A stretch of DNA of 64,000 nucleotides from an uncultured Acidobacteriota bacterium (GTDB lineage Bacteria > Acidobacteriota > Thermoanaerobaculia > UBA5066 > Gp7-AA6), in contig CAVRXJ010000007.1 in NCBI GenBank assembly GCA_963725095.1, positions 107,287 through 171,286 of the forward strand. Direction: 5' to 3'. Below the pieces are notes generated by a model. It made no database searches. It was given only the letters and a program-made list of their open reading frames with translations, and was not told the origin of the DNA. The translations under genes were made by a program, and so were the position numbers. Below, one piece after another: positions 15,009 through 61,479 of this stretch (positions within the stretch are counted from its first letter, which is position 1; every line of letters begins with the position of its first letter).

Positions 15009-15024
15009 TGATGCGTTTATCTCA
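15009..15024. promoter_or_regulatory. Motif A site (TGATGCGTTTATCTCA), degenerate
   Basis: TGA-N10-TCA copy of the recurring 16-bp palindrome, between divergent Rieske and Hsp20 genes. Confidence 0.45.
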
Positions 15025-15085
15025 TGAACCGCCGAAGGCGCCGGTGAGATTATTTTCCGCTGGAGAAAGAACAAGGAGGGTCATC

Positions 15086-15572
15086 ATGAACTTCAATCTC
15101 ATTCGTCGCGAGCCCAATTTCCCGGTGTTCCGTCCGTTTGGGGAGACTCCGTTCTTCCGTGAAATGGAGGAGATGTCGGATCGCCTCAACCGCATCTTTC
15201 GCAACGACCCGTCCCTACGAGAAGGAGGCGTTGAAGGTGGCGGAGTGGGCGCCCGTCGTCGACATCCAGGAAACGGAGACGGAGTATCTGGTCAAGGCGG
15301 ATCTTCCGGAGGTCGAGAAGAAGGACGTGCAGGTGACGGTGCAGGAGGGCGTCCTCACCATCCAGGGAGAGCGGAAGCAGGAGAAGGAGGAGAAGGGCAG
15401 GAAGTTTCACCGGGTCGAGCGGTCCTACGGGACGTTCCTCAGAACATTCACCGTTCCCGAGGATGCGGAGGAAACCAAGGTCACCGCGGACTTCAAAGAC
15501 GGCGTCTTGAGGGTTCATCTTCCCAAGACGGAGAAACCGCGCTCCAAAGCCATCGAAGTCAAAGTGGTCTAG
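15086..15572 (+). CDS. Hsp20/alpha-crystallin small heat-shock protein (frameshift ~15215)
   Basis: WAPVVDIQET, ADLPEV, LTIQGERK, ERSYGTFLRTF, FKDGVLRVHLPK; RBS AAGGAGG. Confidence 0.93.
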
Positions 15573-16062
15573 GTCCTCGCCCCCGGGCAGTGCCGCCCTT
15601 CGCGGCGGCTCGAGCGGCCGGATCTTCCGGCCGCTCTTCCTTTTCCGGAGGATCCCTCCGGCCGGGCGCGATTCGAATCCGCCGCCGAGGACCTCGCCGC
15701 AGTGGCTGAGCCAGGTCCGCGTCGGAGAACTCCTCCCAGCCGCGGCAACCGCCGGCGCCGTTGCGCTGCGCGTCGCAGGCGAAGCCGACGCGGCGGCGGA
15801 TCTGCTCGGCGAGCTGCCAGACGTTGGCCAGTTCCTCCATTTGCGCGCGCGAGAGGTGCGTGCTGCGCCCGAGGGCGCCCTTCCACCGCCGGTCGAATTC
15901 CGAGGCGGGCCAGCGCTGGAATCCGTGACAGAAGATGCCCCGCTCGGCGGCGATCTGGCAAATCGAGTGCTCGTCGTCGGTGAGCTTCTGCAGGGCGACA
16001 CGCAGACGCGAGATCGCCTCCTCCCGCGTCCAGGTCTCCGGCTCGGGGCTTTCCCCGTTCAT
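15559..16062 (-). CDS. Cys-rich hypothetical protein, paralogue of 59788-60219
   Basis: MNGESPEPETWTREEA..EHSIC..GIFCHGF..CD..CRGW; ATGA overlap with upstream gene; two compensating indels near 15690-15710. Confidence 0.75.
   Translation of the reverse strand: MNGESPEPETWTREEAISRLRVALQKLTDDEHSICQIAAERGIFCHGFQRWPASEFDRRWKGALGRSTHLSRAQMEELANVWQLAEQIRRRVGFACDAQRNGAGGCRGWEEFSDADLAQPLRRGPRRRIRIAPGRRDPPEKEERPEDPAARAAAKGGTARGRGPRPL
15612..15644 (+). terminator. Probable intrinsic terminator after hsp20
   Basis: GAGCGGCCGGA-TCT-TCCGGCCGCTC (11-bp stem) followed by TTCCTTTT. Confidence 0.65.
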
Positions 16063-16631
16063 GCCGAGCGGGACCGCCGGGGCTCCGTGCGCAGCGGATC
16101 GTCCAGGACGAGGTCCGGATGGAGGGCCCGGAAGGACTCGGCCATGTGGCAGTTCCAGCAGACGCGGTAGTGGGTCTGAAGGACCTGCGGGAGGGTTTCC
16201 GGGGCGACCTCGTCCCATTCCATCCGGACGCGATCGGGGCTCATGAGGACGGGCTTGTGCTCGCTCCACTGGATCGGGCCGAACTCGACGCCGCAGAGCG
16301 CGCAGTGCTCGTCCTTGTACCAGTCGGTCAGCATCGTTCGGACGAGGCACTCTTCCGGCGCCGCCTCGATCTGGGCCAGGCACTCCTGGCCGCAGTCCTG
16401 GCGCTCCGGCCACCGGGAGCAGGACTGGAGACGCAGGTCGGCCTCTCCCGTCACGCCGGTCACGGCCGCATGCGCCGCGTCGAGCTCCACGGCGACCGGG
16501 CGCCGGGTTTCGGGGCAGGTGACCACCCGGGTTCCCCGAAAGCTTCCGGTAGGCGCGCAGGACGAGCCAGCGCCAGCGGAATGAGGGAAACGCACAAAGG
16601 CAATCGCGAAGATGACGAAGAGGGCATTCAT
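16059..16631 (-). CDS. Membrane-anchored Cys-rich hypothetical protein, probably metal-binding
   Basis: Hydrophobic N-terminus; TCPET, CSRWP..DC..EC, CALC, CWNCH; RBS GAGGTGAGG. Confidence 0.75.
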   Translation of the reverse strand: MNALFVIFAIAFVRFPHSAGAGSSCAPTGSFRGTRVVTCPETRRPVAVELDAAHAAVTGVTGEADLRLQSCSRWPERQDCGQECLAQIEAAPEECLVRTMLTDWYKDEHCALCGVEFGPIQWSEHKPVLMSPDRVRMEWDEVAPETLPQVLQTHYRVCWNCHMAESFRALHPDLVLDDPLRTEPRRSRSA

Positions 16632-16681
16632 GACCTCACCTCTGGATACTCAATTTCGGCCTGCGCGCGGCGCCTTTGCAA

Positions 16682-16697
16682 TGATGCAAACCCATCA
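16682..16697. promoter_or_regulatory. Motif A site (TGATGCAAACCCATCA)
   Basis: Intergenic, about 50 bp upstream of the 16631 start codon. Confidence 0.6.
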
Positions 16698-16725
16698 AGC
16701 CTCCTGCTCCGCCGTCTCCCGGCAG

Positions 16726-25239: not shown

Positions 25240-25734
25240 GACTCGCGCGTCGATGGAAAGGAAATCCCAGGCGGCGCGCCTCCTCGACGACGCGGCCAAC
25301 CAGATGCGGCAAGCTCGCCTCGACGGCCGGGGTTCGCTCGAGGCTCGAGATCGAGGGAGCCCGGAACCAGGCCGAGCAGGAGCACGATCCGGGGAGACCG
25401 TCCGAGCCAGCGGGCGCCCTCCAGCAGATCCGAGACGCCGATCTGATGGGGAGACAGCCGCGAGGCAACGGCCGGAGCGACGTCTTCCCCTTCCAGCCGA
25501 ACGAACGACGCGACCGGCGCGTCGTCGGAGATGGCGTCCACGAGGATGGCCCTCTCCGCGTCCTCGAGGTGCGGAAGCAGCGAAAGCCCGAGCGTGCCGC
25601 CGTCGAGCACCGCGACGCCCTCGGGCACCTCGTACTCCTCGAGCAGCCGCCGGACGGCGGCCACTCCCAGCCCGTCGTCGCCGCAGGAGCAGGTTTCCCA
25701 GCCCCAGGATCAGCAGCGGGGTCGGCTTATCCAC
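25236..25734 (-). CDS. hyaD: Hydrogenase maturation protease HyaD/HupD (frameshifted)
   Basis: LILGLGNLL.GDDGLG, DGGTLG, LVDA, SPHQ. Confidence 0.92.
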
Positions 25735-26536
25735 GTGGACGGCCGCCCTTTCGTCCCGAAGCGCCGCGCGGCAGAGGATCGGGCAGGGATTCGTCCCGCG
25801 AGACGAATCGGTAACCGGAGTAGATGACGTCCTCGTGCGGCACGAACTTGTAGCCGGAGAAGATCGACTCGACCGTCGCGTTGGCCTCGACCTGCGACAT
25901 GTAGATCGCGCTGTAGACGTGGTGAACGGCAAATCCCAGGATGAGCCACATCACGACGTGGTGAATCCAGTGCGCGGACTGCAGGCCGCCGCAGAGGGGA
26001 ACGAGGAACGCGAAGAAGCGGAACGGCGAGTGCACGCCCGCGCTGACGGAATACATCGCGAGGCCCGTCGCGATCATCAACGCGTAGAGGCCGAAGACGA
26101 TCGCGTAGGCCATTCCCGCCAGAGGGTTGTGGCCGACGAAGCCCGGCGGCTTGCGCAGCGCGAACAGATAGAACTTGACGGTCCCGAGGATGCCCTGGCG
26201 CCGGCGGCGGTGGACGGGGAGAAATTTGTCCCAGCGCGCGTACGTGTTCCCGAGGAACATCCAGATCAGCCGGGACACGACGGCCAGGGCGAAGGCGATG
26301 GCGGCGTAGAAATGGATCACCTTCATCGTGCCCATGACGAAGTGAAAGCGCGCCTCGCCGGGAACGACGAAGAAGGGGCGGCCGATGTAGATGCCCGTGA
26401 CCGAAAGGACCACGATGGAAAACGCAATGACCCAGTGCGTCAGGCGCACCGGCCACTCCCAGACGTAGACACGGATGAGTTCCATGTCGCTTCGGTGCGG
26501 AGGAATCGCTGCCAGCGGAAGGCCTGCGGCGCTCAT
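25727..26536 (-). CDS. hyaC: [NiFe]-hydrogenase b-type cytochrome subunit
   Basis: VYVWEWPVRLTHW, GHNPLA, WIHH, HHVY, SIFSGYK. Confidence 0.93.
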   Translation of the reverse strand: MSAAGLPLAAIPPHRSDMELIRVYVWEWPVRLTHWVIAFSIVVLSVTGIYIGRPFFVVPGEARFHFVMGTMKVIHFYAAIAFALAVVSRLIWMFLGNTYARWDKFLPVHRRRRQGILGTVKFYLFALRKPPGFVGHNPLAGMAYAIVFGLYALMIATGLAMYSVSAGVHSPFRFFAFLVPLCGGLQSAHWIHHVVMWLILGFAVHHVYSAIYMSQVEANATVESIFSGYKFVPHEDVIYSGYRFVSRDESLPDPLPRGASGRKGGRPRG

Positions 26537-28240
26537 ACGGCCCTCACCCGCGTGATCTCGCGCCGCCGCGCGTCCACGACGTGGACTCCGCAGGCCATGC
26601 AGGGATCGAAGGAGTGGACCGTTCGAAGAATCTCCACGGGCTTCTCGGGTTCCGCCACCGGCGTTCCCAGAAGCGCCTGCTCGTAAGGTCCGCGCTGGCC
26701 CGCGGCGTCGCGCGGCCCGGCGTTCCAGGTGCTCGGCACGACGCACTGGTAGTTGGCGATCGCGCCGTTCTGGATGTGCACCCAATGGCCGAGCGCGCCC
26801 CGCGGCGCCTCGTGGAAGCCGGCGCCCGTGGCGTCCGAAGGCCAGGTGTTGGGCTCCCACTTGGAGTTGTCCTGGATGCGCAGCTCCCGCCGGCCCATGT
26901 TGCCCGGCGAGCTCCGTGAGCCAGTCGCCCATCTTGTCGGCCAGGATCTGCGTCTCGATCCCGCGCGCCGCCACGCGGCCCAGCGTCGAGAACAGGGCCT
27001 CCGGCCCGACGCCGAGCTTGGCGAGGACCGCTCCCACCAGCGTCTTGACCTGCTCGTGTCCCGAAGCGTAGGCCACGAGCATGCGCGAGAGCGGCCCGAC
27101 CTCCATGGGAAGACCGTCGTACCGCGGAGACTTCAGCCAGCTGTACTTGCCGTCGGTGTTGAGCCTTTCGTACGGCGGAGCGGGCCCCGTGTACTTGGGC
27201 TTCGTCTCTCCCTCGAAGGGATGGAGCGCCTTCTTGTCGCCGCCGGCGTATTCGTACCAGGAGTGCGTGACCTGCTCGGTGATCTTCGCGGGGTCGAAGG
27301 CCTCGACCTTGGAGAGATCGCGATTGCGGATCACGCCCGAGGGAAGGAAGAGGTTCGGATGCGCCCCGTCGTCCTGCGGGTATTCGCCGTAGACCAGATA
27401 GTTGCCGACACCCTGGCCGTACCCCGCCCAGTCCTTGTAGAAGGACGCGATCGCGAGCAGGTCCGGGATGTAGACCTGGGTCACGAAGTCGCGCGCCTTC
27501 GCGACGAGCTCCTGCATCATCGCGATCGAACCGGCGTTCAGCGAGGCCTGCCGGTCGGGGTCCACGGGCGTCGCCATTCCGCCGACGAGGAAGCTCTGCA
27601 GGTGCGGGTTCTTCCCACCGAGCACCGCGTGAATCTCGATGAACTTGCGCTGCCACTCGAGCGCCTCGAGGTAGTGGGCGACCGCCATCAGATTCGCCTC
27701 GGGCGGAAGCTTGTAGGCCGGATGACCCCAATAGGCGTTGGCGAACGGGCCGAGCTGGCCCCGCTCGACGAACCCCTTCACGCGGTCCCGCACGCCGGCG
27801 AAGTACTTCTCCGAAGAGAGCGGCCAGTTCGAGATCGACTGCGCGAGCGCCGACGTCTTGCCCGGGTCGGCCGAGAGCGCCGAGACGATGTCGACCCAGT
27901 CGAGCGCGTGCAGATGGTAGAAGTGAATGACGTGGTCCTGCACGCACTGCGATGCGATGATCAGGTTCCGCAGCAGGCGGGCGTTGGGAGGGGGAACCGC
28001 GCCGATGGCGTTCTCGACGGCGCGGATCGACGCGATCGCGTGCACGGTCGTGCAGACGCCGCAGATGCGCTGGGTGAAGGCCCAGGCGTCGCGCGGGTCG
28101 CGCCCCTTCAGGATGAGCTCGATGCCCCGGAACATCGTCGAGGAGGACCAGGCGTCCCGGACCTGCCCGCCCTCGACTTCGGCTTCGATGCGAAGGTGAC
28201 CCTCGATCCGGGTCACGGGATCCACGACGACGTGAGTCAT
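26533..28240 (-). CDS. hyaB: [NiFe]-hydrogenase large subunit, group 1 (frameshift ~26905)
   Basis: DPVTRIEGH, L1 QRICGVC, EAPRGALGHW, L2 SFDPCMACGVH and a cleavable tail; RBS GGAGG. Confidence 0.97.
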
Positions 28241-29365
28241 GGCCGACCTCCCTTGTCCTCCGACGTCCCTCTCGGCGGGCGGAGGCGGTTCCGGCGGAGC
28301 CCCCGTCACCCCGCGTTTGAGCAGCGCGATGAGCCCGTGCGTCGCGAACGCGGCGCCCACTCCCGCCGTGGCCCAGAGGCCGACCTTGTCGATCGGCGTC
28401 GCCGTCTGGAACCCGGGAATGCCGGAGAGGTGCTGGTAGAAGGGCGTCATCTTGTCCCAGAAGTCCGGCTCGGCGCACCCGATGCACGGGTGGCCGCAGC
28501 CGATCGGCCAGTTGGTGCCCCCGTTCCAGCGCACGACGGGGCAGTTCTGGAAGGTCACCGGTCCCTTGCACCCCATCTTGTAGAGGCAGTAGCCGGTCCG
28601 GTGCGCCTCGTCTCCCCACATCTCGACGTACTGGCCGGCGTCGTAGTGGGCCCGGCGCTCGCAGCTGTCGTGAATCGACTTGCCGTAGGCGAAGAGCGGG
28701 CGGCGGTACCGGTCGAGCGGCGGCCAGCTCTTGAAGGTCAGGAAGTAGACGATCAGCGCCGTCAGGTTCTCGACGTTGGCGGGGCAGGCGGAGAGGTTGA
28801 TGAGATTGCGAACGCCCGGAACGGCGTCGGCGACTCCCAGGGCGCCGGTCGGATTCGGAGAGGCCGCCGGGAGGCCGCCGAACGACGCGCACGTTCCGAT
28901 CGCGATCGTGGCCATCGCTCCGCCGCAGACTTCACGGGCCATCTGAAGGGCGGACTTGCCGCCGATCGTGCAGTAGGCGCCGCCCTCGCCCGTCGGGATC
29001 GACCCCTCGACGACGGCGATGTACTTCCCGGCGTGATCGTGAACGGCCTTCGCGAGGTTTTCCTCGGCCTGGTGCCCCGCGGCCGCCATGATCGTCTCCT
29101 GGTAGTCGACCGAGAGCGTGTCGAGCACGATCTCGGCGACGGTCGGGCGGCTCGCCCGCAGGAAGGACTCGGTGTTGCCGGCGCAGTCCTGAAACTCGAG
29201 CCAGACCAGCACCGGCTTCTCCGTCTTCGCGATGGCGCTCGCGATCTTGACGCCGAACGTCTTGGGCAGCGCGAGCGCCGAGGCCATCACACCGCAGAAA
29301 CCCACGAACTCCCGCCGCGAGACCCCGCGGCTCTCGAGCTGCTCCAGGAAAGTTCTCTGGATCAT
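28237..29365 (-). CDS. hyaA: [NiFe]-hydrogenase small subunit with Tat signal and C-terminal anchor
   Basis: SRREFV; DCAGNTES, GTC, SACP; distal IHDSC..CLYKMGC; medial NCP..WP..HPCIGC. Stop inferred at the ATGA overlap, requiring one indel. Confidence 0.95.
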
Positions 29366-29608: not shown

Positions 29609-29624
29609 TGATGCGGTCGCATCA
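29609..29624. promoter_or_regulatory. Motif A site (TGATGCGGTCGCATCA)
   Basis: Near-perfect palindrome upstream of the hydrogenase operon; an extra half-site TGATGC at 29570. Confidence 0.7.
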
Positions 29625-29643
29625 ATCTTTCCGCCCCCCGCCT

Positions 29644-30123
29644 CTACCGCGCCGCGCGCAGGTCCTTCTCGTTCATGCCCCCGCATCCGTTCTCGGAGAA
29701 CCTGCGCCCGCAGCCTCCGGACGTGTCGCAGGCGTTTCCGGTGAACGCCCGGGGATTCACGAAGGCAATCCACGCGCGGACGGCCCCCTCGACTTCCTTT
29801 GCGCCGGCGCCATCCCGCGCGATCAGGACGTTGGTGAGGCCCCAGATCGACTTGGCGAGATTGCACGGACAGCAGCAGGTTGCCGCGGAGTACTTGTCGC
29901 AGCAGGGCGCCGGGATTCCGGAGAGGATCCGCTGCCGCAGCTTCTCCTGTTCCGGCGTGAGCCGAACGGACCGCGCGTACGCGATGAATTCCGCCGCCTG
30001 GGCCGGGGCGTCGGAAAACCGAACCGGCGCCGCGATGTTTCGCACGGAGCGATCCGCCGCGAAGGCGCCACCGATCGAAGCGGCGACGAGAAGCATGATC
30101 GACCCCGAGATCCGACGTCTCAC
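29644..30123 (-). CDS. Exported Cys-rich hypothetical protein (9 Cys)
   Basis: Strong RBS GAGGAGG; signal peptide ending AFA; PCC, TCCCPC, C-x5-C, GCGGM. Confidence 0.75.
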   Translation of the reverse strand: MRRRISGSIMLLVAASIGGAFAADRSVRNIAAPVRFSDAPAQAAEFIAYARSVRLTPEQEKLRQRILSGIPAPCCDKYSAATCCCPCNLAKSIWGLTNVLIARDGAGAKEVEGAVRAWIAFVNPRAFTGNACDTSGGCGRRFSENGCGGMNEKDLRAAR

Positions 30124-30230: not shown

Positions 30231-30246
30231 TGATTCAATTGCATCA
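30231..30246. promoter_or_regulatory. Motif A site (TGATTCAATTGCATCA)
   Basis: AT-rich palindrome between divergent genes at 30123(-) and 30294(+). Confidence 0.65.
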
Positions 30247-30597: not shown

Positions 30598-32370
30598 ATG
30601 AGCCGCACCGCTTTCGACCCGACCCTTCCCGTCCGCGAGCTGATCTCCCGGTACGCCGTCGCGAGGTCGGTCCTTGCTTCCCACGGCCTGGACACCTGCT
30701 GCGGCGGCGAGCACCCCCTCGCCCAGGCCTGCGCCGCCAAGGGAGTGTCTTTGCCGCGGGTCCTCGCCGATCTGGAATCCGCGCAGCGCTTCGCCGAATC
30801 GACCAGCCTCGTGCCGCCGACGATGTCGATCCGGGAGCTGCGCCGGCGCTTTCCCGCCACGATCCCCGTGCTCGCGCGCTACGGACTCGGCGACTGCGGG
30901 GGCGAGGAGGGTCCCGATGAGCCGCTCGCCTGGTTTGCGACGGTGCACCAGCTCCCCTTGGACGAGTTCCTCCGCGAGGTGCGGGAGGCGGCCTCTCGAG
31001 AGGTCTCGTCGGCGCCGCCGGCCGCCACGGCGGGGTCTTCCCTTCCCTTCGCGCCGCACTTCATCCTGGGATCGCTCTTCCTGACGCTGACGCTCGGCGC
31101 CACGACCGGCATGGTGAACCTGCTGCGGATCGCGGCCGGGGGCGACGTTCCGATCTCGCACCGCCAGATCCACGGTCACACACAGGTGCTCGGGTTCGCG
31201 GCGCTGTTCCTGATGGGGATCGCCTTTCACGCGCTGCCGCGCATCCTCGGGATCGGAAGCGAACGCCCGCGCGCCGCGCGGCCGGCCTTCTGGCTCATGT
31301 TCCTGGGCGTGATCCTGCGCAACGTCGGCCAGCCGTACAACGTCGACGCCGCGGGGCGCCTGCTCAGCCTGGCTTCCGCGGCGATGGAAGGCGTCGCCGG
31401 TTTTCTCTTCGCACGCTTCGTCTTCGCGGCCCTTTCCCGCGCGCGCTCGGGAAAGTACGGGCCTGCCGATCCGCTCCTGCGGTTCGTCCGGGCCGGAACG
31501 GTCTATTTCCTCGTCGCGCTCGGATGGAACGCCGCTCAGGGAATCTGGCTGGCCGGCCACTTCGAGACGGCGCTGCCGGTCTCGTTGACCGAGCCGTTCT
31601 ACTTCGTGTCGCTCTACGGATTCCTGCTCGCGTGGGTCTTCGGCTTCGGCAACCGCGTCGTCTCACTCTTCCTCGGCGTCGGTCCGGCCCGCAAGGGATC
31701 GCCGGACGCGGCTCTCCTCCTGCAGGCCGCGGGCGTCGCGCTCTTCCTGGCGTCGGCCGCACCGGGAATCACTCTGTCTTGGGCCCTCGTGCTGCGCGAC
31801 GCCGGTCTCACCGCCGTGTCCCTCTCCGCGCTCGCCTTCCTCGCCGGCCACGGCTTCCTCTGGCGCCGCTCGAACCTGCCCGCGCTGCGCACGCCCGGTC
31901 ACCCGACCCTCGCGATCCGGGCGGCCTTCGGCTGCCTCGGGCTCTGGGCGGTCCTGGAGGTCGCGGCCGTGACCGTCTCCCGGGCGACGAGCTTGCCCGC
32001 GCAGAACCTCTGGTGGTCCGATGCCGCCCGACATGTCTTCACCGTGGGTTTCGTGACCCTCTTGATCGTCGGCATGAGCCTGCGGATCCTTCCGGTCTTC
32101 TCGGGGAAGGCCCTCTGGTCTCCGCGGCTGGCGCTCGCAACCTACGCGCTCCTGCTCGCCGGCGTCGCGCTGCGCCTCCTGCAGTACCCAGGAGCCTTCT
32201 GGCCGGTCTTCTACAAGGCGGGGTCCTTCATGGGAATCCCCGTCGTGCTGGCGCTCCTGCTCTTCACCTTCAACCTCTTCCGGACCATGCGGGGGGGCGC
32301 CCGGCCGCCCTCGCGAGCGCCCCGCTCGCCGGCCGCGCCGGCCTTCCTTTCGACGCTTCCCGTGCGCTAG
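30598..32370 (+). CDS. NnrS-family membrane protein with N-terminal ScdA_N (DUF542)-like domains
   Basis: GLDTCCGG..L..AC and a second GLGDCGG domain; QIHGHTQVLGF, DAARHVFTVGF, GMSLRILP; many TM helices. Confidence 0.8.
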   Translation: MSRTAFDPTLPVRELISRYAVARSVLASHGLDTCCGGEHPLAQACAAKGVSLPRVLADLESAQRFAESTSLVPPTMSIRELRRRFPATIPVLARYGLGDCGGEEGPDEPLAWFATVHQLPLDEFLREVREAASREVSSAPPAATAGSSLPFAPHFILGSLFLTLTLGATTGMVNLLRIAAGGDVPISHRQIHGHTQVLGFAALFLMGIAFHALPRILGIGSERPRAARPAFWLMFLGVILRNVGQPYNVDAAGRLLSLASAAMEGVAGFLFARFVFAALSRARSGKYGPADPLLRFVRAGTVYFLVALGWNAAQGIWLAGHFETALPVSLTEPFYFVSLYGFLLAWVFGFGNRVVSLFLGVGPARKGSPDAALLLQAAGVALFLASAAPGITLSWALVLRDAGLTAVSLSALAFLAGHGFLWRRSNLPALRTPGHPTLAIRAAFGCLGLWAVLEVAAVTVSRATSLPAQNLWWSDAARHVFTVGFVTLLIVGMSLRILPVFSGKALWSPRLALATYALLLAGVALRLLQYPGAFWPVFYKAGSFMGIPVVLALLLFTFNLFRTMRGGARPPSRAPRSPAAPAFLSTLPVR

Positions 32371-35276: not shown

Positions 35277-35319
35277 ACTATAGAGGATGCCGGCTCCCGA
35301 GCGGCGCCGCTCCTATAAT
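35277..35319. promoter_or_regulatory. Back-to-back -10 elements for fhs (TATAGT, minus) and the Crp/Fnr gene (TATAAT, plus)
   Basis: TATAAT at 35314-35319, 6 nt before GTG 35326; ACTATA at 35277-35282, 8 nt before the fhs ATG; no RBS on either side. Confidence 0.6.
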
Positions 35320-35325
35320 CGCGCC

Positions 35326-36009
35326 GTGCCGGAGCGCCCACCGGTCCCCTTCGACGCGATCCCGAGCCTGTCGCTGCTGACCCGGGACGAGCGCAGCAAC
35401 CTGGCGCCCCTGTGCGAGCTGACCGCCTGCGAGAAGGGCGCGACGATCTTCTCCGAGGGCGATCCGGCCGAGCGCATCTACTTCCTCTTCCTCGGCCGCG
35501 TCAAGATCGTGAAGGCCGGCCCCGAACGGGACCTCATCCTCGAGATCCTGGGCCCGGGCGAGCCCGTCGGGGCCGTGGCCGCCTTCGAGCGCCGTCCCTT
35601 TCCGGCGACCGCCGTCGCGCTCGAGCCCTGCGGTCTCGTGTCGATCCCGGAGAAGGCGTTCTTTCAGCTCATCGAGAAGCACCCCGAGATCACGCGCCGC
35701 CTGCTCGCGGGCCTGACGCTGCGCCTGATGGCCCTGAACCGCCGCCTCGCCGACATGACGGGAAACGTCGAGTACCGCGCCGCCCGGCTCTTCGAAACCC
35801 TCGCCGCGCGTCTGGGCAAGGAGGGCGCCGGCGGCGTCTTCGTGCCGCTGCCCCTTTCGCGGCAGGAAATCGCGGACCTCGTCGGAACCACCGTCGAAAC
35901 GGCGATCCGCATCATGAGCCGCTGGCAGAAGGAGGCCCTGGTGGAGACCGATCCGAAGGGGTTTCTGATCCGCGACCGCGCCGCCCTCCGGGCCATCGCA
36001 CCGGAGTGA
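35326..36009 (+). CDS. Crp/Fnr-family transcriptional regulator
   Basis: IFSEGDP, GRVKI, GPGEPVG; HTH LSRQEIADLVGTTVETAIRIMS. Alternative start at 35287. Confidence 0.95.
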   Translation: MPERPPVPFDAIPSLSLLTRDERSNLAPLCELTACEKGATIFSEGDPAERIYFLFLGRVKIVKAGPERDLILEILGPGEPVGAVAAFERRPFPATAVALEPCGLVSIPEKAFFQLIEKHPEITRRLLAGLTLRLMALNRRLADMTGNVEYRAARLFETLAARLGKEGAGGVFVPLPLSRQEIADLVGTTVETAIRIMSRWQKEALVETDPKGFLIRDRAALRAIAPE

Positions 36010-37331: not shown

Positions 37332-37347
37332 TGATGGATTTGCCTCA
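37332..37347. promoter_or_regulatory. Motif A site (TGATGGATTTGCCTCA)
   Basis: Degenerate copy in the divergent radical SAM / nos-operon spacer. Confidence 0.5.
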
Positions 37348-37435: not shown

Positions 37436-37449
37436 ATGACGCCCGTCAT
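37436..37449. promoter_or_regulatory. Motif B site (ATGACGCCCGTCAT)
   Basis: Identical to 30550-30563; upstream of the operon leading to nosZ. Confidence 0.75.
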
Positions 37450-37490
37450 ACGCGTCGCCGCGCCGCGGCGAGATCGTCTCGGGAGGAAAG

Positions 37491-37727
37491 ATGAGCGGCC
37501 ATCGAAACAAGGCAGCATCCCAACCCAACGCGCCGGGGACCGATTTTCTCTCTCGCGGCGATGTCGCCCGGCTCTTCGGTGTGTCCGTGTCGACCGTGAC
37601 GCGATGGGCACGACTGGGGCTGCTGAAGACCGTCCGCACGCCGGGCGGCCACTACCGCTTCCCCGCGGAGGAAACCCGCCGCGCGGCGGGCCGCCCGGGG
37701 GCCGCCGAGCTGGTGAGGCTCGACTGA
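37491..37727 (+). CDS. Small BldC/excisionase-like DNA-binding protein
   Basis: LSRGDVARLFGVSVSTVTRWARLG..RTPGGHYRF; RBS GGAGG. Confidence 0.88.
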   Translation: MSGHRNKAASQPNAPGTDFLSRGDVARLFGVSVSTVTRWARLGLLKTVRTPGGHYRFPAEETRRAAGRPGAAELVRLD

Positions 37728-37729
37728 GC

Positions 37730-39664: not shown

Positions 39665-39678
39665 AGGAGGCACACGCG

Positions 39679-40179
39679 ATGACCAAGGACCGAAGGGAAT
39701 TCCTGGTGAGGCTCGGAATCGGCAGCGGCATCGCGGCCCTCGGCGCGCAGACCGTCGCCTCGATGCGTTCGCTCGTGCCCAATGTCTCCTACGACGCGCC
39801 GACGACGGTGAAAATCGGCATGCCGAACGATTTTCCGGACGGCCTGCAGTTTCTCCCGGACCAGCGCCTCTACGTTTTCCGCGAGGGCCGAACCTTCTAC
39901 GCCATTTCCGCTGTCTGCACCCACCTCGGATGCACCGTCCGCGCGGAGGCCCTTTCGCAGGTCGAGACGAAGACCATCGACGGAAAGCCGCTGCGCCTGA
40001 CGCACCGGTTCCTCTGCCCGTGCCACGGCTCGAAGTACAACGGTGACGGAACCAACGTCTCGGGTCCGGCCCCGCGCCCGCTCACCTGGTACCACCTCTC
40101 GGTCGCGCCGGAGGACGGTCAGCTGGTCGTCGACCTGGTGCGCCCCGTGGACCGTGACTTTCGCCTGACGGTCGCGTGA
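39679..40179 (+). CDS. Rieske [2Fe-2S] protein
   Basis: Tat DRREFL, CTHLGC, CPCHGS; RBS AAGGAGG. Confidence 0.93.
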   Translation: MTKDRREFLVRLGIGSGIAALGAQTVASMRSLVPNVSYDAPTTVKIGMPNDFPDGLQFLPDQRLYVFREGRTFYAISAVCTHLGCTVRAEALSQVETKTIDGKPLRLTHRFLCPCHGSKYNGDGTNVSGPAPRPLTWYHLSVAPEDGQLVVDLVRPVDRDFRLTVA

Positions 40180-40189
40180 AGGAGACCGC

Positions 40190-41533
40190 ATGAGACCGAA
40201 CCCCGAGAACTCGACCCCTCCCGCCGCTCCCGGCGTGCACCCGAAGCGCTGGTGGAGCTTTCGACCCGCCTCCGACCGGCAGGCGGGCGACGCGATCGTC
40301 TCCAACTTCCTGCTCCACTGGTTCCCCGCCAAGAGCTACAAGCCGTCGCTCGCCTGGAGCTACTCGCTGTGGCTCGGCACGGTCTCGGCCGCCCTGCTCT
40401 TCCTGCTGATCCTCTCCGGCCTTCCGCTGCTCTTCCTCTACATCCCCTCCGTCGAGCGAGCCTACGCCTCGGTCAAGGACATCGAGTACGTCATCACCTT
40501 CGGCTCCTGGATCCGCGCCGTTCACCGGGTCTCGGCCCACCTGATGGTCGCCGCCGTGTTCCTGCACCTGGTGCGCGTGTTCCTGACAGGCGCCTACAAG
40601 AACGGCGTCGGCCAGAACCAGCGGCGCGAATGGAACTGGGTCTTCGGCGTCGCCATGCTCCTCCTGACGCTCTTCCTCTCCTTCACCGGATACCTCCTGC
40701 CCTGGGATCAGCTCGCCTACTGGGCGGTCACCGTCGGCACGAACATCGCGTCCTCGGTGCCGTTCGTCGGCCCGACGGCGCGCGAGCTGCTCATCGGCGG
40801 ACGGACGATCGAGCAGGCGACGCTCATCCGCTTCTACGTCCTCCACATCCTCTTCCTGCCCATGCTGATCGGCGCGCTCTTCGGCTACCACATGTGGCGG
40901 GTGCGCAAGGACGGAGGGCTCGCCCGCGCCGACGCCGCGAAGCTCGCCGCGGAAAGGGCGGAACGACCGGCGTCGAAGTCGAAGACCTACACCCTGCTCG
41001 GCATCGCGCGGGGGACCTCGCCGCAGGTCCGGGCTTCTTCGCTCGAGGCCCAGGGCATGACGGTGAACTCGGTTCCGGACCTGACCCGGCGCATCGCGAT
41101 CGCGATCCTGGGGACGATCGCGCTGGTCGGGATCCTGTCCGTCTTCGTCCGGTCGCCTCTCGAGGAGCCGGCCAATCCGCTCATCACGCCCAACCCGGCC
41201 AAGGCGCCCTGGTACTTCCTGTGGCTGCAGGAGATCGTCACCGACACGACGGTCCACCTGGGCTCCGTCACCATCAACGGAGCCTTCCTCGGCGGCGTCG
41301 TGCTGCCGGGCGTGCTCCTCGTGCTCTTGACCGTCTGGCCCTGGCTCGACAAGAGCCCGGCCGGCGCGGCGGGCATCTGGTTCGCGGGCAGCCGGCGTCG
41401 GCAGAACACCGTGTTCCTGCTCCTCGTCGCGGGCGTCCTCATCCTGACCGTCGTGGGCACCTTCCTGCGCGGCCCGTACTGGCACTTCTACTGGCCCTGG
41501 CAGCCGTGGCCGCAACTTCCGTCGAGGATCTGA
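40190..41533 (+). CDS. Cytochrome b/b6 (fused subunit IV) with APWY in place of PEWY
   Basis: RAVH..LH, FTGYLLPW, RFYVLH-x14-H, NPAKAPWYF. Confidence 0.92.
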   Translation: MRPNPENSTPPAAPGVHPKRWWSFRPASDRQAGDAIVSNFLLHWFPAKSYKPSLAWSYSLWLGTVSAALLFLLILSGLPLLFLYIPSVERAYASVKDIEYVITFGSWIRAVHRVSAHLMVAAVFLHLVRVFLTGAYKNGVGQNQRREWNWVFGVAMLLLTLFLSFTGYLLPWDQLAYWAVTVGTNIASSVPFVGPTARELLIGGRTIEQATLIRFYVLHILFLPMLIGALFGYHMWRVRKDGGLARADAAKLAAERAERPASKSKTYTLLGIARGTSPQVRASSLEAQGMTVNSVPDLTRRIAIAILGTIALVGILSVFVRSPLEEPANPLITPNPAKAPWYFLWLQEIVTDTTVHLGSVTINGAFLGGVVLPGVLLVLLTVWPWLDKSPAGAAGIWFAGSRRRQNTVFLLLVAGVLILTVVGTFLRGPYWHFYWPWQPWPQLPSRI

Positions 41534-41534
41534 C

Positions 41535-42775
41535 ATGGAACAGAGAACCGACTCCCCATATCCGAAGAAAGACCGGCCCGTCCTGGCGGTCATCGGCCTG
41601 CTGCTGGTCCTGTCGACGGTCCTCTTTGCGTGGAGCGACCGCAAGCACGACTGGCGCTACTACCAATACGCGTTCCGATCGCAGGTCGTCGAGAAGCTCG
41701 GGGCGGAGAAAGCGAAGACGCTCCCCAAGGGCGTCCAGCAGATCTGGGTCTCGGAGATGCGGCGGGCCGACCGCTGCGTCACCTGCCACCAGGCGATGCT
41801 GTGGAAGGGGTTCGAGAAGGCGGAGAATCCCTTCCGGACCCACCCGACGGAGCCCCTCCGCCACCACCCGATCGAGAAGTTCGGCTGCACCTCCTGCCAT
41901 GGCGGGCAGGGCTGGGCGATCGACGCCGCGGCCGCGCACGGTCCGGTCGAGCACTGGGAAGAGCCGCTCTTGGGCTCGCAGCTCGGCGAGGAATACACGC
42001 TCGCGGCGAACAAGACGGCGCTGATGCAGATGAACTGCAACGTCTGCCATCGCTACGACCGCCAGACGAAGGGCGCCGACGAGATCAACCTCGCCAAGGC
42101 GCTCGTTCTGGAGAAAGGCTGCCGGGCCTGCCATGTCATCAACGGCCGCGGCGGGACGATCGGTCCGGACCTGACCTGGGTCGGCGACAAGGCGCCCGAG
42201 CAGTACGAGTACGGCCGCCTCTCGGGGCAGATGAGCGCGTTTGCCTGGCACGTCGCGCACTTCAAGGATCCGCGCGCGCTGGTTCCGGAAACCGTCATGC
42301 CGAACTTCCACTTCACGACGCGCGACGCGCAGGCGCTCTCCATGCTTGCGCTGTCCTGGCGGCGCGCGCCCATCCCCGCCGACTACCGGCCGGGCCTCCC
42401 CCGCACGGATCCGCAGACGCCCGAAGAGGTCGCCGAGGAACAGCGGATGAAGACCGGGCCGGGCGCCTGGTTCGTCAAGACCGGCTGTTTCGTCTGTCAC
42501 TCGATCCAGGCTCTCGGCGTCAAGAGCCCGGCGCAGATCGGACCCGACCTTTCGACCGCCGTCGAGGACACGCAGGCGCGCTTCGGCCGCACCGTCGACG
42601 ACTTCCTCCGCGAGCCCCGACAGGCACGATGGCGGTCGTCCTTTCGCGGCAGATCGTTCTGACCCCGGAGGAGAAAGCGATCGCCGTGCAAAAACTCCGC
42701 GAAGCCTTCGCGGAGTATCAGAAACAGAAGGCCGAGGGCCACAACACGCCGGCCGGCGAGGCCGGAAGACACTGA
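41535..42775 (+). CDS. Membrane-anchored pentaheme cytochrome c (frameshift ~42618)
   Basis: N-terminal TM; CVTCH, CTSCH, CNVCH, CRACH, CFVCH; GPDL and MP motifs. Confidence 0.9.
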
Positions 42776-57763: not shown

Positions 57764-57767
57764 GGTC

Positions 57768-58514
57768 CTATGCCCCCATGGCCTGCCCGCCGTCGACGGC
57801 GAGTGCCTGACCCGTGACGTGCGCCGCACCGGGGCCGGCGAAGAACGCCACCGCCTCGGCGACGTCCTCGGGCCGCGCCACGCGGCCCATCGGCGTCTCC
57901 GCGATCGCCCGTCGCCGGACCTCCTTCGGCAGAGAGGCCGTCATGGCCGTGTCGTGAACCCGGGCTCGACGAGGTTGACGGTCACACCGCTCCGCGCGAG
58001 CTCTTTCGCTGCGGAACGGGCGAGCCCGAGCAGGCCCGCCTTGGCCGCGGCGTAGTTCGCCTGGCCGAACTTGCCGCGCCGGCCGTTGATCGACGAGACG
58101 ATCACGACGCGCCCCGAGCGTTGCCGGCGGAACGCCGGCGCCGCGGCGCGTAGATAGTGGGCGGCTCCGGACAGATCGACCGCAACGACCCGATCCCACT
58201 GCGCGTCCGTCATCTTCCAGAGCACCGCGTCCTGGCAGATCCCCGCGGCCACGACCAGCAGGTCCAGGCGCCCGCGCCTGGCAACGAGGTCCGCAACGGT
58301 CCGGCGCGCCGCGGCGGCGTCCGAGACGTCGACGCCGTACAGGTCGGCCGAAGCGAAGCGTTCTCCGAAGTCGCGCGAGGCGCCGGGCGTCCGCGTCGGC
58401 AATCGCCACGAGCGCCCCCGCCGCCGCGAGCCGGCGGGCGCAGGCGAGACCGATCCCGCCTGCCCCTCCCGTGACGAGCGCGACCCGGCCGGAGAGCTCG
58501 CGTTGCCTCGTCAC
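57768..58514 (-). CDS. Short-chain dehydrogenase/reductase, FabG-like (frameshifted)
   Basis: VTGGAGGIG, SSING, YAAAK, VTGQ..VDGG. Confidence 0.85.
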   Translation of the reverse strand: MTRQRELSGRVALVTGGAGGIGLACARRLAAAGALVAIADADARRLARLRRTLRFGRPVRRRRLGRRRGAPDRCGPRCQARAPGPAGRGRGDLPGRGALEDDGRAVGSGRCGRSVRSRPLSTRRGAGVPPATLGARRDRLVDQRPARQVRPGELRRGQGGPARARPFRSERARAERCDRQPRRARVHDTAMTASLPKEVRRRAIAETPMGRVARPEDVAEAVAFFAGPGAAHVTGQALAVDGGQAMGA

Positions 58515-59569
58515 TCGAACGCGGCTCCGCAGAGGCCGCAGTGCGTGAAGGAGGCGGGCAACCCCGCGCCGCCGCACTTGCCGCACGAGCGAACGTGCGC
58601 CCCCCAGGGCGTCTCGGGCGAGCCTCCCGGCTCGACGGCGCGCCGGCGCACCGAAGCGAAATCGACCGGACGCTTCTCGGCGAAAGCGCGCATCCCCTCG
58701 AACGGCTCGTAGTCGGTGTAGTGGAGCGCGAGCCAGTCCTGCGCGTGCCGCACGGTCAGGGCCCACGAGAAGTCCTTCCAGAAGTTTGCCTGCTGCTTCG
58801 TGTAGCGCACACATTCCGGGAACGTGCGCAGCAGCTCCTGCGCCAGCCGGTCCACCTCCTCATCGAGGCGGGACAGGTCGATCGTGAACCCGTCCACCCC
58901 CTTCTGTGCCTTCTCGATCTGCTCCCCCGTGGCGTTCTCGAGGAACGAGCCGCCTCGCTTGACCGACGGAGCAACGCGGTTGACGAGTCCCCACTCCAGG
59001 GCGAGCCGCGCCGGAATGGGCCGGTTGGTGAAAAGCATCTCGCGCGCCCGCTTGTCTCCCACCGTGATCGGAAGCCATTGCGTGGCGCCACCACAGGCGA
59101 CCGAGCCGACGCGGACGCCGACCTGCCCGACGGAGGCATGTTCGGCCATCACGGCGAGATCGCACGCCAGCACAGACTCGTTGCCTCCGCCGACGGCGAC
59201 ACCGTTGATGCGCGCTACGACGGGCTTGCCGGTCGAGAGGATCGCGTCGATGTAGGCGCGGAAGAGGGCCATGTACTTCCAGTAGTCACGCGGCGCACCG
59301 ATGTAGGTTTCGGCGTACTCCTTGACGTCCCCTCCGGTGCAGAACGCCCGGTCGCCGGCCCCGGTCAGGACGATGACGCCAACCGAATCGTCGAAGGACG
59401 CGTCCTTGAGCGCCGACGCCAACTCCTCCAGACACGCCGTCGAGTAGGCGTTGTAGCGGAAAGGGCGGTTGATCGTGATCCGGGCGACGCCAGACCGCTT
59501 TTCATACAGGATCTCGCGGAACGAGAAGCTCTCGCCGGGGCGGGGCTCGAAGGCGGGAGGCCGACTCAT
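58511..59569 (-). CDS. oah: 6-oxocyclohex-1-ene-1-carbonyl-CoA hydrolase
   Basis: YNAYST, AFCTGGDVKEYAE.Y, GGGNE, GGATQWLP, C-terminal CGKC..CGLC; first gene of the bcr operon. Confidence 0.85.
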   Translation of the reverse strand: MSRPPAFEPRPGESFSFREILYEKRSGVARITINRPFRYNAYSTACLEELASALKDASFDDSVGVIVLTGAGDRAFCTGGDVKEYAETYIGAPRDYWKYMALFRAYIDAILSTGKPVVARINGVAVGGGNESVLACDLAVMAEHASVGQVGVRVGSVACGGATQWLPITVGDKRAREMLFTNRPIPARLALEWGLVNRVAPSVKRGGSFLENATGEQIEKAQKGVDGFTIDLSRLDEEVDRLAQELLRTFPECVRYTKQQANFWKDFSWALTVRHAQDWLALHYTDYEPFEGMRAFAEKRPVDFASVRRRAVEPGGSPETPWGAHVRSCGKCGGAGLPASFTHCGLCGAAFE

Positions 59570-59604
59570 CGAAACCAACCTAGCCCCCCGGGTCGGCCGA
59601 GGAC

Positions 59605-59653: not shown

Positions 59654-59669
59654 TGATGCAATCGCCTCA
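59654..59669. promoter_or_regulatory. Motif A site (TGATGCAATCGCCTCA)
   Basis: One mismatch from the 61464 copy. Confidence 0.65.
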
Positions 59670-59745: not shown

Positions 59746-59761
59746 TGATGCGTTCGGATCA
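59746..59761. promoter_or_regulatory. Motif A site (TGATGCGTTCGGATCA)
   Basis: Upstream of the Cys-rich hypothetical gene. Confidence 0.6.
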
Positions 59762-59787
59762 GGCTCGCCATCCCACTGAGGACGAGA

Positions 59788-60219
59788 GTGATTCGCATGG
59801 GGACCGGCAGCGGCGGCTCAGGGCCTGAAACGGGCGAAAGGATGGAAAGTCTGTCCCGTCCGAAGGCGCTCGAACGGATCCGGGAAAAGCTCACCATGAT
59901 GACCGATGAGGAGCACTGCATGTGCTCGGTCGCGGGACGCTTCGGCATCTTCTGCGGCGGCTTCCGCAACCTCTCGGACGCGGAGCTTCGACGTCGGTTC
60001 GATTGGATCGCCCTCCGCCGTCCGCAGGCCTCTCGCCAGGAACTCGAAAAGCTGATCAGCCTGTATCACGTCGGTCGCCAGCAGGTCGCCGGCGCCGCCC
60101 TGTGCTGCGACGTCGAGACGCGGGAACACTGCGCCTGCGACGGATGGAACGCCTTCGACAACCGCGCGCTCGAAAAGCTGTGCCTCGAGCTGACGGGCCG
60201 GCCCATTCGCATCGATTGA
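59788..60219 (+). CDS. Cys-rich hypothetical protein, paralogue of 15559-16062 (start may be 59797 or 59842)
   Basis: EHCMC, GIFCGGF, CCD, CACDGW, LCLELTGRPIRI. Confidence 0.8.
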   Translation: MIRMGTGSGGSGPETGERMESLSRPKALERIREKLTMMTDEEHCMCSVAGRFGIFCGGFRNLSDAELRRRFDWIALRRPQASRQELEKLISLYHVGRQQVAGAALCCDVETREHCACDGWNAFDNRALEKLCLELTGRPIRID

Positions 60220-60253
60220 CGCCCCTCCCGGAACTGCCGCGCCACGGCGGGCG

Positions 60254-60916
60254 CTAGATCAGGTGGTGCTGGTAGGCGAAGACCACGGCCGCGAGCTTGG
60301 TGTGGACGTCGAGCTTGTGCAGGATGTTCTGGATGTGGTTGCGCACCGTCACGGGCGCGATGAAGAGCCGCTTGGCGATCGCCCCCGTCGTCAGACCCTC
60401 GGATAGGCACCGGAGGATCTCCTTCTCACGCGCGGTGAGCTCGACTGGTTGACCCTCGGACGTGGTCATCGGCCAGAGGGGCTCTCGCGCGTCCGCCTCG
60501 CCGGCGAGATGCCGCTCGAGCGGGGAAGGCTTCTGTTTTTCCTCGCGCAACACGTGGACAACCGTGGAAAGGGCCGGATGGTACGAGGGGATCGAGAACA
60601 GCGAGACCTCGAACCACCTGTGTCCCTGTTTGCCGATCTCGATCGACAGCGGAAACCGCCGCACGGGGTCCTTGGGCGTCTCGCGCGCCTGATGGGCGAC
60701 CGGGCAGTTGCGGAAGCAATAGACGTTTCCCTGGCTATCCCGGCCGCCGAGGACGTCGTAGCAGTGCTTTCCGAGCACGCTGCGCGCCGGGCGCTGGAGC
60801 AGCGCCTCGATCTTCTTGTTCCAGAGGATGATCCGATCCGCAGAGTCGATCGCGAAGACCGCCTCGTCGCTGCGGGCAATCCGGTCGAGTGCGTCGGAGG
60901 CGTTGGGCACGGCCAT
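60254..60916 (-). CDS. PAS-domain LuxR-family one-component regulator
   Basis: EAVFAID..RIILWN..VLGKHCY; CFRNCP; HTH LTAREKEILRCLSEG..IAKRLFIAPVTVRNH. Confidence 0.92.
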   Translation of the reverse strand: MAVPNASDALDRIARSDEAVFAIDSADRIILWNKKIEALLQRPARSVLGKHCYDVLGGRDSQGNVYCFRNCPVAHQARETPKDPVRRFPLSIEIGKQGHRWFEVSLFSIPSYHPALSTVVHVLREEKQKPSPLERHLAGEADAREPLWPMTTSEGQPVELTAREKEILRCLSEGLTTGAIAKRLFIAPVTVRNHIQNILHKLDVHTKLAAVVFAYQHHLI

Positions 60917-60987
60917 CCTCACAACGTTAGCACCGCTGCCCCGGCGCGGCAAACCGCCAGACGGGTCTTTGCTGTGTCGGAGGGCTT

Positions 60988-61425
60988 CTAGGCCGATTTC
61001 CGGCGGCGCGGGGGGCGCACCACCGCCACGGGACGGCGGGAGACGTAGACAAGCCGCAGGGCGACGCCGCCCAGGACCCACTCCGTCAGGGAGTCCCGGC
61101 CCTCGCTTCCGACGACGACCAGGTCCGCCTTGAGCCGATCGGCCTCCCGGGAGATGGTCTCCGGAACGGGGGCGGTCGATCGCGGAGAAACCAGATGAAA
61201 AGCCATACGAACCGGCTGCCCATGCATCCGGCGCGCGGCCAACTCGAGAATCCTTTCGGCACGCCGCCGGAGCCGATCGGGCTTTTCGTCCGCATGTCCC
61301 GGAGCGGGTCGAGCAACAGTCAATACGATCAACTCCCCGCCCGGGGAGCCTGCCACCAGCCGTGCCGCGAACCGAAGCGCCGCGATCCCACCGCGAGAGC
61401 CATCCGTTGCCGCCAGAATCCGCAT
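60988..61425 (-). CDS. Universal stress protein
   Basis: RILAATDGS, ADLVVVGSEGR..LGGVA..PVAVV. Confidence 0.92.
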   Translation of the reverse strand: MRILAATDGSRGGIAALRFAARLVAGSPGGELIVLTVARPAPGHADEKPDRLRRRAERILELAARRMHGQPVRMAFHLVSPRSTAPVPETISREADRLKADLVVVGSEGRDSLTEWVLGGVALRLVYVSRRPVAVVRPPRRRKSA

Positions 61426-61463
61426 CGCAGAGAGAAGTTAATGCCGGAGACGGAGTGTCCAAA

Positions 61464-61479
61464 TGATGCAATCGCATCA
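61464..61479. promoter_or_regulatory. Motif A site (TGATGCAATCGCATCA)
   Basis: Near-perfect palindrome centred 46.5 bp from both divergent ATGs (61425 and 61518). Confidence 0.75.

Follow-up and report, generated by a model that had tools for sequence, protein, structure and literature searches.

We describe an operator and its regulon in an uncultured soil bacterium of the Acidobacteriota, based on a stretch of 64,000 nucleotides from contig CAVRXJ010000007.1 (assembly GCA_963725095.1), which is referred to below as the window. The operator is a 16-bp palindrome with the consensus TGATGC-RWWY-GCATCA. This motif is enriched in the genome, is positioned at promoters, is conserved across the bacterial order and marks a characteristic set of stress and respiratory genes. 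The operator and its regulon are real and conserved in the uncultured class Thermoanaerobaculia, and they are apparently new to the literature, as no published description of a TGATGC-RWWY-GCATCA regulon was found in the open-access literature searched. The best overall explanation, which we hold with moderate confidence, is that the boxes are the operators of a PAS-LuxR activator that controls a regulon resembling the DosR regulon of mycobacteria. Under this explanation, the box would be the binding site of a transcription activator and would replace the -35 element of sigma-70-type promoters; the activator would most likely be a dimer of a receiver-less PAS-LuxR protein encoded in the window (60254-60910), and it would activate its own operon, which consists of a universal stress protein (USP) gene and the PAS-LuxR gene.

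The genome of the window, designated G000, comprises 4.0 Mb in 31 contigs with a G+C content of about 69.5%. Other genomes compared are likewise given G numbers, contigs of G000 are given C numbers and individual loci L numbers, whereas f1, f2 and f3 denote families and g12 denotes a genus. Alignment of the 24 best copies of the motif in G000 refined the consensus to the form given above, and the same 24 copies were used to build a symmetric weight matrix. G000 contains nine exact copies of TGATGC-N4-GCATCA and 15 copies with one mismatch; about 0.1 perfect copies are expected by chance, as estimated from base composition, and the reversed pattern used as a control has no perfect copy. Matrix matches with scores of at least 16 number 41 in G000 versus six in the reversed genome, and those with scores of at least 18 number 32 versus one. 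Such a genome scan with a weight matrix had been suggested in the initial annotation of the window, and it revealed the intergenic enrichment expected there: the centres of all 32 matches scoring at least 18 are located outside called genes (p of about 2e-18), as are those of 38 out of 41 matches scoring at least 16. Weak matches (scores of 8 to 10) fall outside called genes at the background rate (41 of 148). The gene calls, which are based on open reading frames (ORFs), were used only as a conservative mask; they cover 72% of G000 and leave 28% outside, because the assembly contains many frameshifts. In the window itself, the loose pattern TGA-N10-TCA is weakly enriched, with 10 matches versus 5.46 +/- 2.11 in shuffled sequences (five of 100 shuffles reach 10 matches), and two of these matches, at 30148 and 60053, are not counted as sites. 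The motif is also enriched in most relatives from the same order.

All eight palindromes that had been annotated in the window were recovered at their coordinates, with zero to three mismatches to TGATGC-N4-GCATCA (Table 1). All eight lie between genes, as had been claimed; the box at 29609 falls within a long ORF but upstream of the real start of the hydrogenase small-subunit gene (ATG 29365), which is followed by a Tat-type SRREF motif. This box is followed after 23 nt by TAGGGT, and boxes of the same type also precede the hydrogenase small-subunit gene in G013. The copy at 61464 is indeed centred 46.5 bp from both divergent start codons, ATG 61425 on the minus strand and ATG 61518 on the plus strand, and has orthologues at all 12 loci of the set L021-L032. 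Taken alone, the box at 15009 would be ambiguous (score 14.2); it is accepted as a site because an equivalent box precedes Hsp20 in 11 out of 11 same-genus relatives, scoring at least 18 in nine of them. Equivalents of the box at 16682 are strong (19.7 to 25.3) and match in distance in at least seven of 11 same-genus loci, and an equivalent of the box at 37332 with a score of at least 12 is present in six out of seven orthologous loci of relatives. The downstream genes correspond to those named in the initial annotation, except that the Cys-rich small proteins described there as paralogues are not detectably paralogous (BLASTP E of at least 0.076). Three Cys-rich small proteins without a Pfam family are each encoded directly behind a box, and the 143-residue protein has two boxes upstream of its gene. 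The box-adjacent small proteins lacking Pfam domains were rejected as hidden regulators, since a search of them gave no helix-turn-helix (HTH) signal at E values up to 1, and an atlas search with the 143-residue protein gave no usable match.

The predicted regulon in G000 comprises stress and respiratory genes scattered over at least 12 contigs. In addition to the genes of the window, it includes at least four more USP genes, two BON proteins, CBS proteins, a PfkB-DUF5335 fusion and a phosphoribosyltransferase. Further targets are an ADP-forming acyl-CoA synthetase, pyruvate:ferredoxin oxidoreductase, OsmC, a DUF3300 protein, a molybdopterin oxidoreductase, a cupin, and a PAS-HisKA_3 kinase with a REC-GerE response regulator. 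The predicted regulon encompasses roughly 35-45 promoters for genes of stress, dormancy and respiratory flexibility. In G013 and G014, which represent two other genera, the boxes mark hydrogenase, USPs, CBS proteins, OsmC and multihaem cytochromes, as well as acetyl-CoA synthetase, malic enzyme, superoxide dismutase and FeoB. In these two genomes, Hsp20 was rejected as a target, since its gene is located about 650 bp from the closest box. By analogy, the gene set appears much like the dormancy regulon controlled by DosR in mycobacteria, and its content suggests low oxygen as the signal. The operator is unlike the boxes of FNR, CRP and Rex, short consensus forms of which, taken from general knowledge, occur in G000 in one, zero and zero copies, respectively, and are not enriched. 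It also differs from the Dev box, as given in the available part of the respective source (PMC3177182). The proposal of a DosR-like hypoxia or dormancy regulon with an operator unlike these described ones is upheld by the targets, by the conservation of the motif and by the operator itself.

The boxes have a characteristic location in their promoters. The distance from the box centre to the start codon is mostly 40-65 bp, and the -10-like hexamer TANNNT begins 21-24 nt past the box 15 times in G000, compared to 13 times over the 57 other offsets examined. For 141 boxes from other species, the respective numbers are 33 at 21-24 nt and 25 over the other offsets. With this spacing, the expected transcription start lies about 42 bp downstream of the box centre; the box would occupy the -35 position, which is the arrangement of class II activators. 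At the box 61464, the distance from the box to each ATG is just 38 nt, which implies very short leaders for both the USP and PNPOx genes. We consider it quite likely that the predicted binder activates transcription and does not repress it.

Among the three regulators proposed in the initial annotation, the PAS-LuxR protein fits best, and it is probably the protein that binds the box. This protein of 218 residues matches the Pfam families GerE (5.7e-17) and PAS (1.6e-5) and has no REC domain. The operon that encodes it is preceded by the strongest box in G000 (61464), and boxes flank its orthologue in all 12 loci L021-L032, two of which are from the unpublished genomes G005 and G020 (G022, used below, is also unpublished). 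Boxes also flank PAS-LuxR orthologues or paralogues in G016, G017, G019, G024, G028, G036, G041, G043 and G050; no flanking box was found at the homologue of G046. In four genomes, tandem boxes 20-21 bp apart, equivalent to two helical turns, are located upstream of a second PAS-LuxR paralogue (L066 in G019, L067 in G024, L068 in G017 and L072 in G041). Among species loci with a PAS-LuxR homologue, all from Thermoanaerobaculia or Acidobacteriota metagenome-assembled genomes, 59 out of 79 have a box scoring at least 16 within 2 kb. Altogether, these 79 loci contain 143 boxes in 342 kb and none in the reversed control, compared to 41 boxes in 4 Mb genome-wide.

The distribution of the motif among genomes of f1 that are at least 90% complete follows that of the regulator. 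When up to one mismatch is allowed, the copies number 9-39 in the 16 genomes with an orthologue (controls 1-10) and 1-9 in the seven genomes without it (controls 5-8). The same pattern is observed within the genus g12, where G043 encodes PAS-LuxR and has 22 copies versus eight in the control, while the genomes lacking the regulator have five versus five (G022), five versus six (G048) and five versus five (G052). The recognition helix TVRNH is invariant over homologues of 34-84% identity, including those of the f2 type. In a Holophagales metagenome-assembled genome (L177), a PAS-LuxR homologue with 44% identity was matched, and a box with a score of 20.7 begins 67 bp upstream of this match; the pairing of box and regulator may therefore extend to another class of Acidobacteriota.

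Several observations weigh against this assignment and the activator mechanism built on it. The motif is enriched in G013 (24 versus 3), G014 (19 versus 7) and G049 (11 versus 3), where no full-length PAS-LuxR was found, even by a profile search; these genomes are 86, 85 and 85% complete, respectively. G006 (80% complete) has only a paralogue of the f2 type. Enriched genomes of f2 hold only homologues with 38-40% identity, and no box scoring at least 20 is located within about 3 kb of the seven f2 homologue loci scanned, three of which have a box scoring 15-19 at a distance of about 1-2.5 kb. In f3, where the orthologues have 59-63% identity, enrichment is only weak (54 versus 19, summed over seven genomes), and G007 and G021 have an orthologue but near-background numbers of copies (9 versus 8 and 9 versus 7, respectively). 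A strict TANNNT at the fixed offset follows just 15 of the 41 boxes. Finally, any gene of the regulon island would share the observed co-occurrence, and the compared genomes are related rather than independent.

Some of these observations would be explained if another regulator binds the box and PAS-LuxR is merely a conserved regulon member whose operon carries the best box, an alternative that we regard as rather unlikely. It would account for the f2 homologues without a strong box nearby and for the genomes G013, G014 and G049, which combine the motif and its typical targets (hydrogenase, USP, CBS, OsmC and multihaem cytochromes) with assemblies in which PAS-LuxR was not found; moreover, regulon members gained and lost together with their regulator would mimic the co-occurrence. 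However, all three exceptional genomes are just 85-86% complete, the PAS-LuxR locus is often found on short contigs or contig ends, and several boxes of G014 lie at contig edges, so that assembly gaps are a plausible, although unproven, cause of the missing gene. No other regulator gene recurs beside the boxes, and the f2 homologues retain the same recognition helix.

The promoter architecture bears on the direction of control. LuxR-type and redox regulators often repress from positions that overlap promoters, and the box described here does overlap the promoter. It is conceivable, but improbable, that PAS-LuxR or another protein represses by blocking the -35 region and that stress de-represses the regulon. 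The rigid spacing to the -10-like hexamer, with the box in place of the -35 element, is the signature of a class II activator. In addition, the PAS-LuxR regulators characterized in the available part of PMC9774167 are activators that bind the -35 region.

The other regulators considered are much less consistent with the data. An FNR-type anaerobic regulon, in which the Crp/Fnr-family protein of the window binds the box, is very unlikely. FNR regulons typically have a box near -41.5 and genes of an anaerobic type, the lack of enrichment of canonical FNR and CRP boxes leaves the protein's own motif unassigned, and the box precedes an Hsp20-Crp gene pair in three f2 genomes. However, a Crp/Fnr orthologue was not found in the motif-enriched genomes G012, G013, G019 (98% complete, two contigs) and G025, the gene itself has no upstream box in the f1 loci examined, and genomes lacking the motif still hold one to three Crp-type regulators. 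The half-site geometry is also different, as the conserved G/C pairs of the motif are 7 and 13 bp apart rather than 9 bp, while the helix of the Crp/Fnr protein keeps the Glu and Arg residues that in CRP and FNR read TGA-N6-TCA. The Crp/Fnr protein, which had been named among the candidate regulators, was rejected as the binder on the basis of its distribution, the absence of autoregulation and the half-site geometry. The third proposed candidate, a BldC-like protein, was not found; the small ORF at 30294-30512 encodes 72 residues and has no Pfam match.

A further regulator of the LuxR type is encoded elsewhere in G000, within the locus L002 (C29:531000-535235), where a frameshifted PAS-HisKA_3 kinase gene and a REC-GerE response regulator gene are both located behind a perfect box. 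The kinase and regulator pair resembles DosS/DosR, and the box lies 42.5 bp upstream of the kinase start, yet it is highly improbable that this DosR-like response regulator is the one that binds the boxes. An orthologue of it (E of 1e-40 or better) was found in only one of 11 same-genus genomes, whereas the motif is present in all 11, and its recognition helix is unlike that of PAS-LuxR. This NarL-type response regulator was thus rejected as the binder for want of conservation in the genus. The relative closest to it (89% identity) comes from another family of the order, which suggests a recent horizontal transfer into the regulon. Finally, we give practically no credence to the idea that the palindromes are upstream activator sites of a sigma-54 enhancer-binding protein. 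As 16-bp palindromes with conserved outer triplets, they resemble a NifA-type upstream site, but this reading was rejected because boxes located 40-65 bp from the start codons, with the -10-like TANNNT 22-23 nt downstream, cannot accommodate a -24/-12 promoter at a distance of about 100 bp.

The sensor domain of the candidate PAS-LuxR activator has a distinctive residue pattern. Besides the HTH residues, four residues are invariant in 15 out of 15 homologues, namely C50, C65, C69 and H119, which form a C50-x14-C65-x3-C69 motif plus a histidine. The fold model (mean predicted local distance difference test score of 77.8, predicted template modelling score of 0.56) comprises a PAS sheet followed by a four-helix LuxR-type HTH, and its best full-length structural matches are VqmA and EL222; the sequence search identified solved relatives for the HTH only, namely VraR, LiaR, NarL, GerE and DevR. 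By our reading of the predicted secondary structure, the four residues would be located on the helices and the last strand, elements that line the cofactor pocket in other PAS domains. The cofactor held by such a Cys3-His set in the PAS pocket would be a metal or an iron-sulphur centre responsive to oxygen, nitric oxide or redox state, and the conservation of the set suggests that it is redox-active. The nature of the signal, whether oxygen, nitric oxide or redox state, can be proposed only tentatively. A broader proposal, which we consider possible but still speculative, is that this single PAS-LuxR protein, with an iron-sulphur or metal centre on Cys3-His, directly senses oxygen, nitric oxide or redox state and that, throughout the uncultured class Thermoanaerobaculia, it acts as master activator of a DosR-like regulon for dormancy and low oxygen, serving with its new operator as a one-component stand-in for the DosS/DosT-DosR and NreB-NreC relays.

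The predicted system shares features with several known ones. USPs, Hsp20/alpha-crystallin, CBS proteins, PfkB, a phosphoribosyltransferase, PNPOx-like proteins and respiratory genes are common to it and to the DosR/DevR regulon as the latter is generally known. Both DevR (as described in the available part of PMC3177182) and the candidate have a LuxR/GerE-type HTH, a palindrome near the promoter, autoregulation and some tandem boxes, the regulation being predicted in our case. However, DosR is a NarL-family response regulator with a receiver domain; it is phosphorylated and receives its input from the haem GAF kinases DosS and DosT, whereas the candidate here lacks a receiver and has its sensor fused to the HTH. 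The half-site of the Dev box is GGGACT, compared to TGATGC here, and DevR promoters are described as always having at least two tandem boxes (PMC3177182, available part), whereas most promoters reported here have a single box.

In architecture, the candidate is similar to the archetype PimM and to PteF, AmphRIV and NysRIV of Streptomyces, which also have an N-terminal PAS domain and a C-terminal LuxR-type HTH without a receiver. The Streptomyces PAS-LuxR regulators are activators, the 16-bp palindrome that they recognize in the -35 region has a WW centre, and the operator consensus of the PimM class is CTVGGGAWWTCCCBAG (both from the available part of PMC9774167). The shape of the box and its -35 position are thus alike, with binding by PAS-LuxR being a prediction in our case, but the operator sequence TGATGC-RWWY-GCATCA is different. 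Regulators of the PimM class are pathway-specific and act in antibiotic clusters, whereas the targets described here are stress and respiratory genes scattered over the genome, so that the candidate appears to control a genome-wide regulon. The two also differ by phylum, by autoregulation and by the Cys3-His signature found here in the PAS domain.

NreB offers a parallel for the sensor: its PAS domain holds an iron-sulphur cluster on three or four clustered cysteines and senses oxygen or sulphide, with a LuxR-type HTH as the output (PMC13478379, available part). In Staphylococcus and Bacillus, however, the CX2CX11C(X2C) motif belongs to a histidine kinase, NreB, which acts through a separate response regulator, NreC, whereas in the candidate a C-x14-C-x3-C motif with a distant histidine and a putative cofactor is fused directly to the HTH. 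EL222 (LOV-HTH) and VqmA (PAS-HTH) have the same two-domain architecture of PAS or LOV and LuxR-type HTH, but they share only 12-18% identity with the candidate, sense blue light via flavin and the autoinducer DPO, respectively, and have neither the Cys3-His signature nor a comparable regulon. In class II promoters of FNR and FixK, a palindromic box near -41.5 replaces the -35 element before low-oxygen genes. The position of the box described here is similar, while its sequence and half-site spacing are different and the Crp/Fnr orthologue does not track the motif. Thus, the system is like DosR and FNR in its targets and site position and like PimM in its architecture and box shape, and by operator, sensor chemistry and scope it is a member of none of these classes.

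Table 1. Boxes of the operator motif and associated genes in the window (positions are those of the 64,000-nucleotide stretch)
Feature	Position	Strand	Details
Box TGATGCAATCGCATCA	61464..61479		score 28.3, the best in G000; 0 mismatches; divergent USP-PAS-LuxR / PNPOx promoters
Box	59746..59761		score 23.2; one mismatch; upstream of the 143-residue Cys-rich gene
Box	59654..59669		score 23.6; one mismatch; upstream of the minus-strand enoyl-CoA hydratase gene
Box	37332..37347		score 19.5; two mismatches; 96.5 bp upstream of the Pyr_redox_2/Fer4 - Rieske - cytochrome b - cytochrome c operon
Box	30231..30246		score 27.7; one mismatch; 159-residue Cys-rich gene (minus) / 72-residue ORF and ScdA-DUF1858-NnrS (plus)
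Perfect box	29609..29624		score 24.4; 251.5 bp upstream of the [NiFe] hydrogenase small-subunit start
Box	16682..16697		score 22.9; one mismatch; 58.5 bp upstream of the 190-residue Cys-rich gene
Degenerate box	15009..15024		score 14.2; three mismatches; Rieske/cytochrome b operon (minus) / Hsp20 (plus)
PAS-LuxR (GerE HTH), receiver-less, 218 residues, candidate regulator	60254..60910	-	recognition helix TVRNH
USP gene, first of the USP-PAS-LuxR operon	60988..61425	-	
PNPOx-like (Pyridox_ox_2) gene	61518..61967	+	
143-residue Cys-rich protein, without family assignment	59788..60219	+	
Enoyl-CoA hydratase gene	58511..59578	-	
Pyr_redox_2/4Fe-4S oxidoreductase, Rieske, cytochrome b, multihaem cytochrome c operon	37436..42662	+	
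ScdA_N-DUF1858-NnrS fusion, nitric-oxide-stress type	30598..32370	+	
159-residue Cys-rich exported protein, without family assignment	29644..30123	-	
[NiFe] hydrogenase small subunit, large subunit, cytochrome b	25727..29365	-	single ORF owing to assembly frameshifts
190-residue Cys-rich protein, without family assignment	16059..16631	-	
Hsp20	15086..15572	+	probable start ATG 15086, frameshift before the 15138 frame
Rieske (14534-14959) and cytochrome b (13520-14500) genes	13520..14959	-	
Crp/Fnr-family regulator, rejected as binder	35287..36009	+	

Some of the boxes are found in duplicated regions. The last 4.4 kb of contig C7, which contains the window, and of contig C30 (C7:167890-172254, corresponding to 60604-64000 of the window, and C30:30982-35344) are inverted copies with 96.5% identity that span the MgtC/DUF4010, PNPOx and USP genes and the start of the PAS-LuxR gene. 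The copy of the 61464 box on C30 is degraded (score 14.9). The arrangement is either a genuine inverted duplication or the result of co-assembly of two variant strains. In another case, the entire contig C8 (10.35 kb) is an 89-91.5%-identical copy of the window positions 35971-46417, including most of the Crp/Fnr gene, the 37332 box, the Pyr_redox-Rieske-cytochrome b-cytochrome c operon and the start of the nos cluster; thus, the box counts for G000 include at least one non-independent copy. Two boxes on contig C25 (C25:4272 and C25:9074, locus L008) lie within a repeat of about 100 bp, the two copies of which are 4.8 kb apart and 90 to 95% alike. Both boxes are followed after 22 nt by TAGCTT, and the G+C content at third codon positions (GC3) in the surrounding region is below that of the rest of the genome.

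The assembly also contains frameshifts that affect the genes of the window. The minus-strand region 25727-29866 is a single ORF of 1379 codons, which apparently fuses the two [NiFe] hydrogenase subunits with cytochrome b; the large subunit is followed by an Arg-rich stretch of nonsense sequence and matches its profile only over positions 1-402 of 508, which indicates that this fusion is at least partly an assembly frameshift. The formate-tetrahydrofolate ligase gene at 33638-35039 (minus) is split into three ORFs, a Ser/Thr kinase gene shifts frame near 4200, and the GC3 phase switches inside ORFs. For Hsp20, the apparent start ATG 15086 is in another frame (15086-15138) than the remainder of the gene. 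The completeness estimate of G000 is 67.6% because of the many assembly indel errors.

The window also includes a nitrous-oxide reductase cluster at 42809-49402, which encodes a nos propeller protein, NosD, an ABC ATPase, an ABC-2 permease and a hemerythrin-like protein. Upstream of this cluster there is no box with a score of 14 or more, and the cluster therefore seems to be outside the regulon.

Thermoanaerobaculia are common soil and sediment Acidobacteria, which in these data are known from metagenome-assembled genomes alone. The operator provides a sequence-defined regulon of about 40 promoters that can be read directly in related genomes and that spans hydrogenase, alternative respiratory complexes, stress proteins and several conserved Cys-rich proteins, and one small, easily expressed candidate protein is singled out as its probable switch. 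The fixed geometry between the box and the -10 element permits the prediction of promoters and start sites in Thermoanaerobaculia. If the Cys3-His PAS domain indeed binds a redox-active cofactor, it would represent a new sensor chemistry for the PAS-LuxR class, and the regulator would be a one-protein analogue of the mycobacterial dormancy switch.

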